64,000 bases of DNA, taken from the NCBI RefSeq assembly GCF_963506605.1, contig NC_083288.1, positions 33,790,001 to 33,854,000 of the forward strand, in the 5' to 3' direction. This document shows, piece after piece, positions 47,701 through 55,800 of this stretch; positions within the stretch are counted from its first letter, which is position 1; the number at the start of each line of letters is the position of its first letter. The stretch comes from Zootoca vivipara (taxonomy: Eukaryota). Under the pieces are notes generated by a model, which was not told where the DNA came from, made no database searches, and saw only the letters and a program-made list of their open reading frames with translations. Position numbers and translations under genes: made by a program.

Positions 47701-49469
47701 TGTTATCAGTTATAGTGGTTTTTCAATGCCTATCTTACCTTCCAAGTCCCGGACTGCAGAATCCGGGACCGGCAGCCGTGTGACACCGTAAGTTGCGTCG
47801 ACGTAACTTCCGGTGTCGCTTTGCCCTTCTATGGGCACCAAAAATGGCCACCGCCGGCTTCAAAAGTAGCTTCTACGCATGACCGGAAGTGCGTCAACGC
47901 AACTTCCGGTGTCGGCCTGCCCATCTATGGGCACAAAAAATAGCCGCCGCCGACACCGGAAGTCACGGCTACGCACTTCCGGTCATGCGTAGATGCGACT
48001 TTTGAAGCCGGTGGCGGCCATTTTTGGTGCCCATAGAAGGGCAAATCAGAAAAAAAATGGCCGCCGGCAGGAGAAAATAACAGAGAAAAACGGGAGACGA
48101 AGTGATACGGGGGACCACCGGGAACAGGTAAGTAAAAACGGGGGTTTCCCGGGGAAAACGGTGTACTTGGCAGCTATGATGCCTATCCATCCATATAAAC
48201 CAACCTATACAAATTTGATGCACGGTGGCACCTCTCTCATTTTTTGCCCCCTCTGCTTCATTCTGTTGCCCTCTTCCTTTCTCCTGTGATCCAGTTACCA
48301 GCGCTGTTTGGATTTTGGTTTGGATCAAGTGTCCCGAGCCAGGGGAAGGTTTGAGATGATCGTGGCCACACACAACGAGGCGTCCGTGATGCACACTGTT
48401 CAAAGGTAGGGGGACCACCACAGAGGGGAAGTTAGTGGGGTTGTCTTTCTACGTAACAAGCACCAGCTGGCATGTCCACCAGTTCTGATGGTTTGGAGAT
48501 ATGGGTACTCTCTGAAAGTGGGAGCCACGGGTGGGGGGGGAATAGCCTTGGGAAACTGGCCACCTTTTATCTGGAAAGGAGCCTCTCCACACCACAACAC
48601 AACACACATACACAATGGTATGTGTAAGCACTGTTCTCTCCATGCTTCAGGGTGGAATTGTGCTGGCTTTGTGACATCAGCAACCAATACTCCAATCCCT
48701 ATCCACCTCTCAGATCTATTTGCATGAAAGCAAGCTATAAGGAAAGTGGCATACTACTATCATGACATGCCTGGGAGCAAAATATTGGTTTGTCGGCATA
48801 TAGAGGTAAAGAAAAATCAGCACACATCGTCTGGGCAGACAGCTGGCAGCACATGCATCCCTTCGAAAGGATTATCCAGGACATTGGAAACCTGAGACAA
48901 TAGCAGCAAAAGAAGCCCCATTCACATTATGCAAAACAAGTACACGACACACACAGCCACAATTGGTTAATGTAGAAATAATACCTCCATTGTTTCTTAC
49001 AGTAACCCCATAAAGCTGATCCCCATACCTACATAAGGGACCACCTCTCCTGGTATGCCCCGCGGAGGCCTTAAGGTCCACAGACAACAATATCCTGGAG
49101 ATCCTGAGCCATAAGGTGGCTAGATTGGCCTCAACTAGAGCCAGGGCCTTTTCAGTATTGGCCCCAAGTTGGTGGAACGCTCTTTCACAGGAGACCAGGG
49201 CCCTGCGGGATTTGTCATCTTTCCGCAGGGCCTGCAAGACAGAGCTGTTCCGCCTGGCCTTTGGGTTGGATTCAATCTGACCCCTGTGTTTTCCTCCCTC
49301 ATGGTTTGGATTTATGGACTACTTAAAATGAGGCTGCATTTTAAATTTTAATATTGTATTTTAATCTGTATTTTAATTGTTTTCTTTTCTTTTATGTCTT
49401 ATTGTAATTTTATTGGTGTTATCCGCCCTGAGCCCGGTTTTGACTGGGGAGGGCGGGGTATAAATAAAA

Positions 49470-49516
<47 letters not shown>

Positions 49517-50062
49517 CCCCATATTGCAGATGAGGGATTGAAGGTGAGGTTTAGCGGCAAGCGGCTCGCCTAAAAAACCAGCCAGCGTCTTTGTAGCTTT
49601 ATAGCTTATGCTGTTCACTGCTATGATACTCTCATAACTTCTCCCCAACCTGTCACTGAAATGTGCTTGTTTTATTTCTTTTAAGGATGGCAGAGATGGG
49701 CATTGACAAGGGTGCTGGACCGGTCAGCTTTGGGCAGCTGCTGGGCATGTGTGATCAGGTTTCCTTGGCGCTAGGTGAGTGTGGACCCGCCCCCCCCATG
49801 GATGCTCCCCAAACCCCCAGCCACTTCCCTTCCTCCTGCGTATCGTTACCTCCTTTCTCTCTCTCTTTTTTAAATCTCATGCCCAAATCTAGGCCAGGCC
49901 GGTTATGCCATCTACAAATCTATCCCTTTTGGCTCTGTGGAAGAAGTGATCCCCTACTTGATCCGCCGAGCTCATGAGAACCAAAGCGTCTTACTTGGGA
50001 TCCGGAAGGAGCGAGATCTGCTGCAATTGGAGCTTCGGAAACGGGTTCTGAGGCGGCCTTGA
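39692..50062 (+). CDS. PRODH2: Hydroxyproline dehydrogenase (proline dehydrogenase 2), 10 exons, 471 aa
   Basis: Exons: 39692-39943, 40949-41142, 45830-45950, 46374-46457, 46568-46648, 46762-46908, 47064-47230, 48295-48405, 49686-49774, 49893-50062 (1416 nt). Motifs: [75 protein letters not shown]. The Ser in YKSIP marks PRODH2; PRODH has Tyr there (YKYVP). The N-terminus is Arg-rich like a mitochondrial presequence. Confidence 0.95.
41519..41819 (+). mobile_element. Sauria-type SINE
   Basis: Reverse-complement homologue of the 16348 copy; B-box GTTCGAATCC; tail CCTTTATCTTTACCTT. Confidence 0.85.
43793..44008. mobile_element. Fully palindromic hAT MITE (216 bp)
   Basis: TAGGGTTTCCAGACTC...GAGTCTTGGCAACCCTA; the two ~100-bp arms are near-perfect reverse complements; 8-bp TSD CTTAGGCA. 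Confidence 0.9.
44677..44718. repeat. (TG)n microsatellite (others at about 6263-6300 and 17465-17494)
   Basis: Read directly from the sequence. Confidence 0.95.
45664..45810 (+). mobile_element. tRNA-Lys(CTT)-derived SINE with CR1-type 3' tail
   Basis: The head TAGCTCAGTCAGTAGAGCATGAGACTCTTAATCTCAG...GGTTCGA...CCCACGTTGGGC is tRNA-Lys-like. The tail GGGTTGGACTAGATGAC...TTCCAACTCTAC...TATGATTCTA matches the CR1 3' end seen at about 7020-7076. Confidence 0.85.
47734..48178. mobile_element. CpG-rich hAT MITE in PRODH2 intron 7
   Basis: Imperfect TIRs CTTACCTTCCAAGT / ACTTGGCAGCTATG, 8-bp TSD ATGCCTAT, and internal repeated and inverted units. Confidence 0.85.
49028..49514 (+). mobile_element. 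L2-type LINE 3' fragment with (TTA)n tail
   Basis: Encodes ...[22 protein letters not shown]...[14 protein letters not shown], typical of the L2 ORF2 end. Has a (TTA)n tail and TSD ATCCCCATA. Confidence 0.8.
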
Positions 50063-50172
50063 GGAAATCTAAATATCCCAAAGAACTACCCCACCTCCCA
50101 ATGCTTATTCATGGAACCAGGGCCCTGCATTGCAATGTCTCCAGCTCACTTCCCTCACGATCTTCATGAGGG

Positions 50173-50178
50173 AATAAA
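50173..50178 (+). terminator. PRODH2 polyadenylation signal
   Basis: AATAAA about 110 nt after the stop codon. Confidence 0.7.
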
Positions 50179-50311
50179 CCGCCCTCTTGAGTTACCTGGT
50201 TTCCAGCATCCCAAAGCCCTAGCTAGACTCATGGGTTGGGGCTTAGTGATGTGACAGGCTTTAATGTTGTCAACCTTGTGATATCATGGAGCCGCTAACT
50301 CTAGAAAGACA

Positions 50312-50405
50312 CAGTGTACTGTATCTGAAGAAGTGTGCATGCACACGAAAGCTCATACCAAAATAAAAACTTAGTTGGTCTTTAAGGTGCTACTGAAGGA
50401 ATTTT
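50312..50405 (+). mobile_element. Penelope-like retroelement terminal fragment
   Basis: Flanked by the 12-bp direct repeat TCTAGAAAGACA (50300-50311 / 50406-50417). Contains the hammerhead core, AATAAA and an end sequence (gttggtctttaaggtgctac) typical of vertebrate Penelope elements. Confidence 0.7.
50321..50358 (+). ncRNA. Minimal type I hammerhead ribozyme motif (Penelope-type)
   Basis: GTAT-CTGAAGA-A-GTGTGC-AT-GCACAC-GAAA-GC-TC-ATAC. Stem I is GTAT/ATAC, the core is CUGAnGA, stem II is GTGTG/CACAC, followed by GAAA and a palindromic AGCT in place of stem III. The UH cleavage site falls after C50354. Confidence 0.75.
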
Positions 50406-52529
50406 TCTAGAAAGACAAAAACTGACCCCTGCCAAATATATGAGACAGGGGAAAGAGCTAGAAATGTGAGGCCTGGGAAGGGGGTAGAATCAGGGGGGGA
50501 AATGTTGAAGTTTTTATTTTGAAGATCTCAGTGGTGTGTGTGTGTGTGTGAAAGTTTAGGAAAACACACTGACAAACAAAACTCTTATGCAATGCTTTCT
50601 CTTTCAGAATAATGGGTGGTTTAATTTTTTATAACCAATTACACAATTGCAAAGCTCCTGGATTCAAGATTGGTAATTTGAGCATGGCTGGTGGCCTTGA
50701 GATCTAACCTTGCTGCCCTCAGACCTTCAGCACGGATCCCAAAATCCGAGGGTGTCTTCAGCTCCCACTTACTGTGTTGTTTGCTGCATTGTCAGAGCGG
50801 GGTTTTTAATCCATTTTCCCATGATGTTATCCCAAATGCATAAGTATCCCGTCCTTTGTTACAAAGCACTACTGCTTGAAATGTTGTTTCTCAAACCAGC
50901 TTTACACCAACTGGAGTCCTTTAGCCATTCAGATTCGCTTCTGTTCATGTACACACCAGGGGGTGTTGATGGGACAGGGAACATAAGAAAAGCCCTTCTG
51001 GCCAATGGCCTATCACCCTGCACCCAGGATCCTGTTCTCAAAGTGGCCAACCATAGATGCCTGTGGGAAGAACCCAATCTGGATATGAGCACAAGCCTTT
51101 TTGCTATGCAAAGGCGTTCATACCCCAAACCACCTGCCCACCCCAAAATGTGCTAAAGAAATTCCACACAAGCAATAACTGGGATATTTTTACTAATCAG
51201 ATTATCTGTGTTAATGGGGAATCCCGATTAGATGTTTTAAATAAATAAAAAGAGAACAGGCTGGCGTTTTGAAAACTGTGATTATGTGTGCATGCTGCGA
51301 AAAGTATGTGCGCTGTTGCAGCAGCTCCAATCCCAGCATAGTTTGGTGCTGAGCCACGCTAGGCCAAACTGCAAGCCAGCTGGGTTTTTTTTGGGGGGGG
51401 GGAGCACAGATGGAGAAGGGTTTTATATAATAGGCTTCACCAAATTTGTATTTTAGCAAGTTGGACTCTCGTAGGAGAAGGTAGGTTAGTTGATGTTGAC
51501 TCCTGCCATTGCATGGGGGTTGGACTGGGTCCTTTCCAGCTCTACAATTTCGTGATTCTCTGTGGGCAGGAATAACTGGATGACAGGTCCACATTGCCCA
51601 AAGGTGCTAGACAGGGCAGATAAAAAGGGATTTTTGCAGTAGTGCCCTCCAGAGTGCGGCGATGGTAGGCAGGCTGTCTTTTTTCTCTCCGTGAAGAGAA
51701 CTGGGCATCCACAATGATTGGGGGCCTGCCTGTGTTTCTGGATGGTTGGAAGTGGCATGGGAGGGGTTTTTTGACTTGGCTTAACCTAAATTGGGAGGGG
51801 TTGGGATGGGCCTTGTAAGTTTTATTAAGAGAGCTCCCCCACCTCGCTTCCCCGTAACCACAGCACCGTCCCAGAGTGGTCTTGAGGCTGGGCTAAAAGG
51901 GGAAGCAGCCCTGAGGACCAAGAGGCAGGGACAGAGCTAAATCTGTTTGACCGGGAGTGACCTTGGCACATCCTTGAGGGTTTGCCCGCTGCTCTGCTTC
52001 CTCCTCTGCCACCCTCCCTGCCACTGTGATTAGGGGAATGGAGAGGTGGAAGTGCAGCAGCTGTTTCAAGCCCCATGACTTTTAATCTGCAAAGGCTCAT
52101 TAGGAGGAAACAAACAGTCCTGGAGCTGCAATATTTGAAGGGGCTTGGATAGCCAAAGAGCCAGGAGTCCGAGCTCTTCTGCTCCCTCATCCTGTGCCAA
52201 GCTAGGCCCTCGTTGCTCCCCGCCCACACACTGATGATGGTGATCAAACCAAAGTGTCCCGCTTCGCCAAAGTCCCGCTTCTGAAAACCTCTGGCCTTCC
52301 CACGCAGGAGGGTCCCTGCTTCCTCTTTAATCTGTTTATTCCTGCCCCATATGCTGCCCTTCTGAGCAGCGATTAAAGCGGATAAGCCGCTTTTGGCAGG
52401 GCCAGACGTAGAGCTGCCAGGGTGTTATTCTGACCTCTGCGGATGCCGGCAGCAGCGGGCGGCTCCAGTCGATGTGCCACAAAAAAAGCCACCCCACGCG
52501 GATCCTGAGCGATCCTATACAAGGAAGTC

Positions 52530-52535
52530 TTTATT
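52530..52535 (-). terminator. CABP5 polyadenylation signal
   Basis: TTTATT on plus (AATAAA on minus), about 365 nt downstream of the CABP5 stop. Confidence 0.65.
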
Positions 52536-52899: not shown

Positions 52900-55800
52900 T
52901 CAGCGTGACATCATCCTCACAAACTCTGCAAGGCAAACGTCAAGAAACACATCAGTGTGGCAGGGGAGCAAGGCCAGAGAGACCTGGCTTCAAATCTATG
53001 AAGACTGCTGAGTGCTCCCTCGTCCTGACCTACCTCACAGGGCTGTTGTGCTTATCCAAAGGGAGATAAATGGCTGTGAATGCCACCGCCTGCTCCTTGG
53101 AGATAAATGTGTAATTCACATGTAAAATAATGGTGCCCTGGTTCCCTATTTGCTACTGGGCCAGGTTCAGGTCTTTTGTGTTAATTCACAAAGTCCTGAA
53201 CAACTTGAAGGACACCCAGATTCCATACTCTCCACTTTGATCACTGAGACCTTCGGATGGGGAACTCTCGGTGGTCCTCCATGCCCCCAGGATCTCGCCA
53301 ACCTTTACCAGGGTTTAGTGCAGCAGGGCCTGCCCTGTGGGACTACTTGCTAATGGAAGGTCAGCTAGAGTCATTCCTGCTTTCTTGTCTTTCAAAATGT
53401 GTATTATTCAGACATGCCTTTGAAATTTTTACCAGTGAGTTTTTATTCACATACTAGCTTGCCCTGCCACGCGTTGCTGTGGGCCCCAGTTTCGTTCCCT
53501 GCAAACCTGAGCTATCCTGTCCCCATCCTGCCCCCATCCTGCCCCCAGCCACAACGCAGGCGAGTCCCTACCTCCGTTCCCTGCAAACCTGAGCTATCCT
53601 GTCCCCATCCTGCCCCCACCTGCAACGCAGGTGAGTCCCCAGCTCCGTTCCCTGCAAACCTGAGCTGACGTGTTTTGCGACGTAGGTGGCTAGGGGCAGG
53701 ATCCCGGCGTGGCCCTTTGTGGAGGAATATTGGTTGCTGAGACGCAGGTTCGACCTTCTATTTCCCAGGATGCACTCTGTCCCGCCCTTGGAGACACAGC
53801 TTCTGGGTTCTATTTCCCAGCATGCCTGGCAGTGTCTGCTGTCTGAGTTTTGAGATCCACAAAATGGGGTTTTACCTTGCACTGGGGTGTCATCTGTGTA
53901 CACAAATGGTATGTGGACACTCGCTTATTCGCATGTGACGTGTCCAAATTTCATTGGCATTGGTCAAGCGGTTTTGGTTCGGTTTTACTGCTGCTATTTG
54001 TAGTTATTTCCATTTAGTAAGAAGATAAACCTGCACTGGACATGCACATGATGTTATTCAACTATTTTGGGTGTATCGTTATTTGTTTAATGTTCTGTTT
54101 TGTCTAGTGCTGAATTTAATTATCTTTTGAATATTCTCACAACATCTATTTTTAACTACCTTCTATGCATAATTCAAATCCTTGGATTAGATGACTTGGA
54201 CTTTGGGGTCCCCTTCCAGCTCTACAATTCTATGATTCTACGAAATGTTGCTGTGTTTTGTAAACAGCTTAGAGGTTCCGTTAACATGGAGTTGTACACA
54301 AATTTTGTTAAATAAATGAAATGAAGAAGGATGAGGGAGCACGAGATGGGGGCAGCCCTGGCCTGAGACCCTGCCGATTGTTTGCCTGCTGGACTACTAG
54401 GCAATATCGGCCTGGATGGACAAATAGTTTGGTTTGGGTATAAGGCATGCTCCTACACTTCCTGAAGGCTGGCTATTGTGCCCTTTTCGGCTGGTGGTAG
54501 GCGGTGTTAAACAAATGAGTTACCAATGTAATCCAAACTGAACCAAGATAAGTAAATTCTGTCCCCTGGGGAAATAATGGGCATTCTGCTCTTACATTTG
54601 CTGCTTCACCTGCGTCATTTTGTTTACTTGTGCTGGAAGTTGGTTGTAGTAGCCTGAAATATCCCCAGAATCTGTATTCTGAAATGACCTATGTCCTGTT
54701 ACCTAAGGATGTAAGGAGAGGCTGCTAGATCAAGCCAGTGGTTCACTTAGTCCAGCATCCTCTTCTCAGGGGTCAACCTATGGGTAGGCTCAACAGCACT
54801 CTCCTAGAATGGAATCCAGAAGCATTAAAAGGTAAAAGGACCCCTGGACGGTTAAGTCCAGTCAAAGGCAACTATAGAGTTGCGGTGCTCATCTCGCTTT
54901 CAGGCCGAGGGAGCCGACGTTTGTCCACAGGCAGCTTTCCGGGTCATGTGGCCAGCATGACTAAACCACTTTTGGCGTAACAGAACACCATGATGGAAAC
55001 CAGAGCGTATGGAAACACCGTTTTCCTTCCCGCCACATCAGTACCTATTCATCTACTCGCGCTGGCATGCTTTCGAACAGCTAGGTTGGCAGGAGCTGGG
55101 ACAGAGCAACGGGAGCTCACCCCATCGCGGGGATTCGAACCACCAACCTTCTGATCAGCAAGCCCCAAAGGCTCAGTGGTTTAGACCACAGCACCACCTG
55201 CGTCCCTCCAGAAGCATTACTGCCTCTGACAGTGGAGGTAGAACATAGCATTCAGGGTCATTAAGTCTTACCTAGTGGGACAACTCCCACAGTGTGCTAT
55301 CTAATGCCTGCTTATTAAATTGGTACCACAACCACCCCACCAATGGGGCTGCAAACAGGGCAGGTGGAGCAGGGAGGCTGGGTGGTCCAGCTCCTGGTTC
55401 CCCACCACTAGCAGCCCGTTTTGACAGGTGGGCTGTGTGCTACCATCTCCATGCAACTGGAGCAATCCAATAACACTCTAACCCTATTATCCAAGCCCAT
55501 TTAAGCCTATATCTTTTCAGCCTGTGCTCCCAAATCCCATCTCCCCAGACCTTTAAAGCTTTTAACCTCTCACCTTGTATCCCGATAAGCCTATAATCTC
55601 TTTCCATCAATCCTATATTCCCCGATTGCATCTCACCCTCAAAATCCACCGTCCCGTCTCCATTGACGTCGGCTTCCTTCACCACATCAGCAATCTCCCG
55701 GGACGTCAGGCGCTCGCCCATCAGCCTCTGCATGGCCTGGTACAACTCATCCAGAGTGATCTCGCCATCCCCGTTGGTGTCAAACTGGAAACAGGGAGAG

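Follow-up and report, generated by a model that had tools for sequence, protein, structure and literature searches.

Among the described systems closest to the motif reported here is the minimal hammerhead (min-HHR) found in the pLTRs of metazoan Penelope-like elements (PLEs), for which a single motif gives no detectable cleavage and dimers cleave at a low level (PMC4209133). In the Neptune and Nematis clades of PLEs, a CX2-5CxxC linker is described between the reverse transcriptase (RT) and the endonuclease (PMC8557442). A lizard example is the Poseidon element PAc of Anolis carolinensis, whose hammerhead is described as cleaving only with the element protein, with no RNA-seq ends at the site, and whose two classes of 3' end are explained as two internal starts of reverse transcription (PMC11167929). 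In Xenopus, PLE-derived non-LTR retrozymes are reported to have their exonic copies mostly in 3'-untranslated regions (3' UTRs) while being depleted from genes overall (10.64898/2026.07.22.740005). Lastly, the rodent Clec2 3' UTR hammerhead belongs to a motif conserved across mammals, which lowers reporter output by 80% (PMC2950038).

The locus described here, in the lizard Zootoca vivipara, shares features with each of these systems and departs from each of them. Its anatomy matches that given for the min-HHR, including an extra base before G10.1-C11.1 and a short palindromic variant. It is however the variant with a two-base insertion (AGCU) and not the one lacking loop 3, its stem II reads, together with the loop, as a perfect palindrome, and the copies of its family are highly uniform, as expected of a young burst, which the relevant passages of PMC4209133 report only for D. 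virilis. With the Neptune and Nematis elements of PMC8557442 the family shares a single ORF encoding RT and then GIY-YIG, a DKG motif and a cysteine linker of the form CX4CxxC, as well as pLTR tandems, inverted 5'-truncated copies and an optional tail of 30-40 bp, but the copy under study is solo, without inversion or tail, and has no microsatellite target, and the likeness is one of motifs and not of a tree. PAc is likewise a lizard PLE with a pLTR hammerhead and two 3' end classes bounding a tail (PMC11167929); its ORF starts within stem II, whereas the frame of the present family starts downstream of the hammerhead and has the cysteine linker. The Xenopus retrozymes also carry PLE-derived type I hammerheads, but the copy studied here is a single truncated unit and not a tandem array, so that the tandem units of a retrozyme are missing from it. 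As in Clec2, a hammerhead stands in sense in a vertebrate 3' UTR; unlike that one, it is restricted to one species among those compared, minimal in form, and of putative activity only. A narrow search of the literature on Penelope hammerheads of lizards and on reptile polyadenylation found no report of this locus.

The insertion and its hammerhead motif

The whole stretch of DNA analysed, referred to as the window, is 64 kb long. In it an insertion of 94 bp (50312-50405) stands between identical 12-mers at 50300-50311 and 50406-50417, which the window sequence and the empty site of the relatives mark as the left and right target-site duplications, with no strand, the first T of the right one being also readable as part of the element. 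On the plus strand, the insertion is a 5'-truncated fragment of a Penelope-like pLTR, which starts nine bases before stem I and ends at the T-rich class of 3' end, without the AC-rich tail of 30-45 bp. A generic pattern scan and folding place a minimal type I hammerhead at 50321-50358, on the same strand, consisting of stem I (50321-50324 with 50355-50358), the core box (50325-50331), an extra A between core and stem II (50332), stem II (50333-50337 with 50342-50346), the GAA box (50347-50349), a palindromic AGCU (50350-50353) and a predicted cleavage site after C50354, equivalent to C17; an element-borne AATAAA follows at 50362-50367. The features of the minimal type I form found here are the core boxes, helices I and II, the extra base before G10.1-C11.1 and a palindromic remnant of helix III. 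In addition, stem II and its loop form a perfect palindrome of 14 nt (50333-50346, no strand), which is predicted to be the main dimerisation handle.

A preliminary description of this DNA had named the insertion with its 12-bp duplication, the parts of the hammerhead with the cut after 50354, and the AATAAA, and the sequence agrees with it on all of these, the relatives holding one copy of the 12-mer; the extra A and the 14-nt palindrome of stem II had been left out. Its identification of the motif as a minimal, dimer-type hammerhead, expected to cleave poorly as a lone copy, also holds. The hammerhead scan it proposed gave a divided answer. With the generic pattern, both strands of the 64-kb window yield one match only, which is the motif at 50321-50358, but a scan of 49500-51500 with Rfam finds no hammerhead family at E<=10. 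Because the Rfam models expect stem III, this miss is probably compatible with a minimal form. No second copy of the insertion is found in the window, two 130-base stretches of N excepted.

Searching the genome for the hammerhead core with a different stem II, by a pattern that bars the second stem II pair of the window's family, gave 18 matches (control 1). Most of these belong to an older family, which shares the hammerhead core but differs in stem II; many of them are degraded, pairing having been judged by eye. The perfect palindrome of stem II and loop belongs to the window's family and not to the older one, and many inverted copies switch at or near 50333-50346.

Parent element and copy number

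The exact 38-nt hammerhead occurs in 13,219 copies in the genome (6,547 forward and 6,672 reverse; reversed-pattern control 0), a density of one per 109 kb that gives 0.59 expected per 64-kb window. The window copy is thus an ordinary one, its motif being of a described kind and present more than thirteen thousand times. When the insertion was compared with the species' own genome at the DNA level, 54 scored matches came back, and 8 of these, the window copy included, are identical over all 94 bases.

In seven stretches picked from the list of hammerheads, the motif lies in repeats flanking Penelope-like ORFs. One parent has an uninterrupted frame of 925 codons with matches to RVT_1 (E=6.5e-12) and to GIY-YIG (E=6.2e-5, above the cut-off), and reading it by eye shows a DKG motif and, between RT and endonuclease, a CX4CxxC linker. 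The same hammerhead and downstream sequence as in the window copy flank this frame, as terminal repeats of an ORF with RT and then a C-terminal GIY-YIG, which is the arrangement of a pLTR, and the assignment of the insertion to a Penelope-like element by the preliminary description is borne out. The CX4CxxC linker, matching the account in PMC8557442, points to a parent of the Neptune/Nematis type. Copies occur in tandem and in inverted arrangements, and their 3' ends fall into two classes, either T-rich or 35-45 bases further on after the AC-rich tail. Among 80 sampled copy ends, which were picked by search and not at random, with inverted pairs appearing twice and a few internal repeats among them, 41 hold the tail motif and 56 have candidate duplications of 10-20 bp by script, most of them 11-16 bp. 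By its sequences this is a young and very high-copy family, and it looks recently active.

A frequency of this order bears on how the position of the insertion should be read. Under uniform insertion, and assuming 18,000-22,000 genes, chance would place 83-151 sense copies within 3' UTRs, and 17-20 within 200 nt after a poly(A) signal; tens of sense 3' UTR copies are thus to be expected from the 13,219 exact copies alone.

The AATAAA after the hammerhead is present in 6,478 of the 13,219 exact copies, while other subfamilies differ there. Since only about half of the copies have it, the hexamer is a subfamily variant and not a conserved part of a module. The parent element has it ahead of the next ORF, and the loose end seen most often at its position in the relatives is without AATAAA.

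Two further arrangements of the family were seen in the same stretches. At L035:2075-4849 (minus strand), the 925-codon frame stands beside a 1.8-kb inverted partial copy of 100% identity, and a 3.0-kb tandem in L031 contains a frameshift.

Occupancy in relatives and age of the insertion

The site is empty in all three other species compared (X14, X15 and X19), each having one 12-mer. The joint of the empty site runs 50299>50406, with 106 letters skipped and 12 letters fitting either side, and the contigs of these species are 3.0-5.1% divergent from the window. In two other individuals of the same species the insertion is present, by its left junction in X6 and by both junctions in X7; the empty-site joint is not among the matches listed for them, in contigs which drop rare variants. 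Conservation at the orthologous site, a trait of the domesticated 3' UTR ribozyme of the Clec2 type, is therefore not seen, the insertion being absent from 3 of 3 other species compared. Motif and AATAAA are intact, and zero changes in 106 bp would have a probability of 0.07-0.59 under neutrality, so that selection may also be keeping the insertion intact.

Host gene and position of the insertion

On the plus strand, a proline dehydrogenase gene has its last coding exon at 49893-50062, with the stop at 50060-50062 (Pfam Pro_dh, E=3.8e-8; splice boundary matched by the contigs of relatives), and the insertion and its hammerhead are oriented in sense to it. From the minus strand a CaBP-type EF-hand gene converges, with a stop read by eye at 52900-52902 and its first AATAAA thereafter at 52530-52535. 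The sense orientation and the convergence had both been described before and are confirmed at the level of gene families (Pro_dh and EF-hand), PRODH2 and CABP5 being the paralogue names used in the preliminary description. A repeat-like stretch also lies in an intron of the Pro_dh gene, at 49000-49516 on the sense strand, and ends in AATAAA and a (TAT)n tail.

Two candidate signals for the Pro_dh gene stand on the plus strand. The proximal AATAAA (50173-50178), 134 nt upstream of the insertion, has weak downstream GU content, whereas two overlapping AATAAA at 51240-51249 are GU-rich downstream and are the candidate main poly(A) signal; the GT/TG steps downstream number 12-13 for 51240-51249 against 3 each for 50173 and 50362. 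In the relatives, whose runs are only guessed to be RNA, a contig of X15 and one of X19 each start to match at a splice acceptor, pass the AATAAA at 50173 and the empty site, and reach 50495 in X15 and 50468 in X19. Since these matches begin at a splice acceptor with unmatched letters upstream (106 in X15, about 1,330 in X19), we infer that the contigs are spliced transcripts. A second X19 contig covers 50494-50860 and 619 letters beyond, and may reach further; the depths of the X19 contigs, a poor measure, are similar (20.1 and 19.6). A 3' UTR can be proposed on these contigs of X15 and X19 for 50063-50860 on the plus strand as the minimum extent examined, and it is likely longer.

These contigs change the reading of the locus in two points. 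The AATAAA at 50173-50178 had been taken as the poly(A) signal of the gene, with the insertion behind the poly(A) site. In two relatives, transcript contigs go on beyond this hexamer and cross the site, and so the element likely sits inside the Pro_dh 3' UTR and not behind the poly(A) site. Transcription through the site is supported to this extent, by way of the relatives, while the Zootoca runs gave no reads on this gene.

Folding, reads and genomic footprints

In nearest-neighbour energies, which omit the tertiary contacts of the core and Mg2+, the fold of 50300-50417 is not beyond that of shuffled sequences (z=-1.34). Stem I and stem II with an open core form with a probability of 0.14 in the bare 49-mer, and the same active fold falls to 1.4e-4 to 6.6e-4 (<0.1%) in four longer contexts. 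For a double hammerhead through AGCU, -12.7 kcal/mol is predicted, which is less favourable than the -16.1 of two monomers. The best dimer (-32.2 kcal/mol) swaps the stem II palindromes and leaves stem III unformed, with a predicted binding of -16.5 kcal/mol for the bare 49-mer.

Three RNA runs of the same species label (X21-X23) hold 3,535, 1,546 and 920 family reads, or 122-470 reads per million records. In none of them is there a place where a fifth of the molecules begin or end, and the depth ratio is 1.04, 0.89 and 0.85 across the cut site and 1.13, 0.72 and 0.80 across the AATAAA. Such reads are survivors from many loci and from both strands, many of them maybe from antisense or mutated copies, and surviving uncleaved reads are compatible with cleavage followed by decay. 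About 6% of each run was read, and no reads on the Pro_dh exon or UTR were found there, which is uninformative on this locus. The family reads at 50320-50406 are strand-skewed, with the first mate on the plus strand at about 4:1, 3:1 and 1.1:1 in X21-X23, uncalibrated. Should these be stranded libraries of the usual type, the skew would mean that the family RNA is mainly antisense to the ribozyme, as might be seen if sense copies were selected against.

As for genomic footprints, the matches that start exactly at the cut site total 83, or about 1% of the subfamily, whereas control positions gave 38 and 41 (raw p=8e-6). The counts become about 38, 30 and 26 (approximate; p=0.30) after filtering by eye, in which only G/T junction letters were kept and copies with point mutations or an internal duplication or deletion were discarded along with palindromic pairs counted twice. 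No clear genomic cleavage hotspot is thus seen at the cut site, as the raw excess mostly goes with the filtering.

Self-cleavage of the window motif is unlikely on these models, because there is no second copy in the window, the active fold stays below 0.1% in context and the favoured dimer lacks stem III, and also because published lone motifs do not cleave and the family reads have no end pile-up.

Discussion

Drawing on the insertion, the duplication, the parent element, the copy number and the empty site in relatives, all of them observed, we consider it probable that the window copy is a 94-bp fragment of an abundant young element which inserted by chance into a probable 3' UTR and stays there as a catalytically silent passenger. 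The element's endonuclease would have made a staggered cut, giving rise to the 12-bp duplication; reverse transcription would have set out from the internal T-rich site and broken off when nine bases 5' of the hammerhead had been copied; and the hammerhead would have come along because it lies in the 3' end that is copied most often. Cleavage is predicted to be rare, since a two-base loop takes the place of stem III, no partner copy exists in cis and the tail for the element's protein is missing, and the host mRNA is predicted to end mostly at the distal signal.

It is unlikely that the ribozyme idles while the AATAAA brought in by the element serves as a newly gained alternative poly(A) signal and gives this species a shorter 3' UTR. 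Poly(A) sites derived from transposons are known, and this hexamer is intact, in sense, likely within transcribed UTR and followed by a short GU/U-rich stretch. However, there is no sharp family-wide drop of depth after it, no poly(A) loose end is among the matches listed, the downstream GU content is low compared with 51240-51249, about half of the copies have no hexamer, and the parent's hexamer precedes the next ORF.

Distinctly unlikely is a cleavage of the host mRNA in trans, in which the motif would pair with abundant transcripts from elsewhere in the family or be helped by the element's protein, and would reduce expression of the gene in the manner of Clec2. The abundance of family RNA, an intact core, the strong dimer predicted from the 14-nt palindrome and the cleavage of the anole PLE hammerhead with its protein, as described in PMC11167929, all speak for this; but the predicted dimer is without stem III, stem I is sequestered in context, the copy has neither the tail nor the ORF start that probably correspond to the region needed in the anole element, the family reads show no end pile-up, and copies starting at the cut site make up no more than about 1% of those in the genome. 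Slightly less probable still is the same idea at the scale of the family, namely that the burst put intact sense hammerheads into about a hundred 3' UTRs, whose transcripts assemble in trans or with protein and cut host mRNAs. The stem II palindrome and the abundant family RNA would then yield active ribozymes across loci and couple mRNA stability to transposon expression. Cleavage in trans or with the protein's help, if true, would mean that the decay of mRNA in a vertebrate lineage had been rewired by a transposon burst.

A position of the insertion behind the poly(A) site in use, from which it would cut read-through RNA and so help termination between the convergent genes, is hardly credible: the genes do converge, and the canonical AATAAA upstream is unchanged among the relatives' matches listed, but the relatives' spliced contigs run through that AATAAA, with the distal X19 contig at similar depth, the transcript is made in relatives that lack the insertion, about 2.1 kb separate the site from the candidate signal of the neighbour, and co-transcriptional cleavage would need a fast monomeric ribozyme. 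The mobile 3'-end module aiding termination that had been proposed for this insertion finds no support for these reasons, and further because its placement is expected by chance from the copy number, its AATAAA is a subfamily variant and family reads do not pile up at the cut site or after the hexamer.

With the silent passenger as the preferred reading, the locus is a clean test case for an action of solo Penelope hammerheads on host mRNA, combining a dated insertion, empty sites in close relatives, a likely 3' UTR and a solo Penelope hammerhead. A different arrangement of the family is seen at L032:1820-4242 (G000:C1:2777319-2779741), where a 598-bp unit, consisting of the 3' end of the ORF plus the pLTR, occurs four times in direct orientation with its hammerhead intact every time, a retrozyme-like array which could in principle form dimers in cis.
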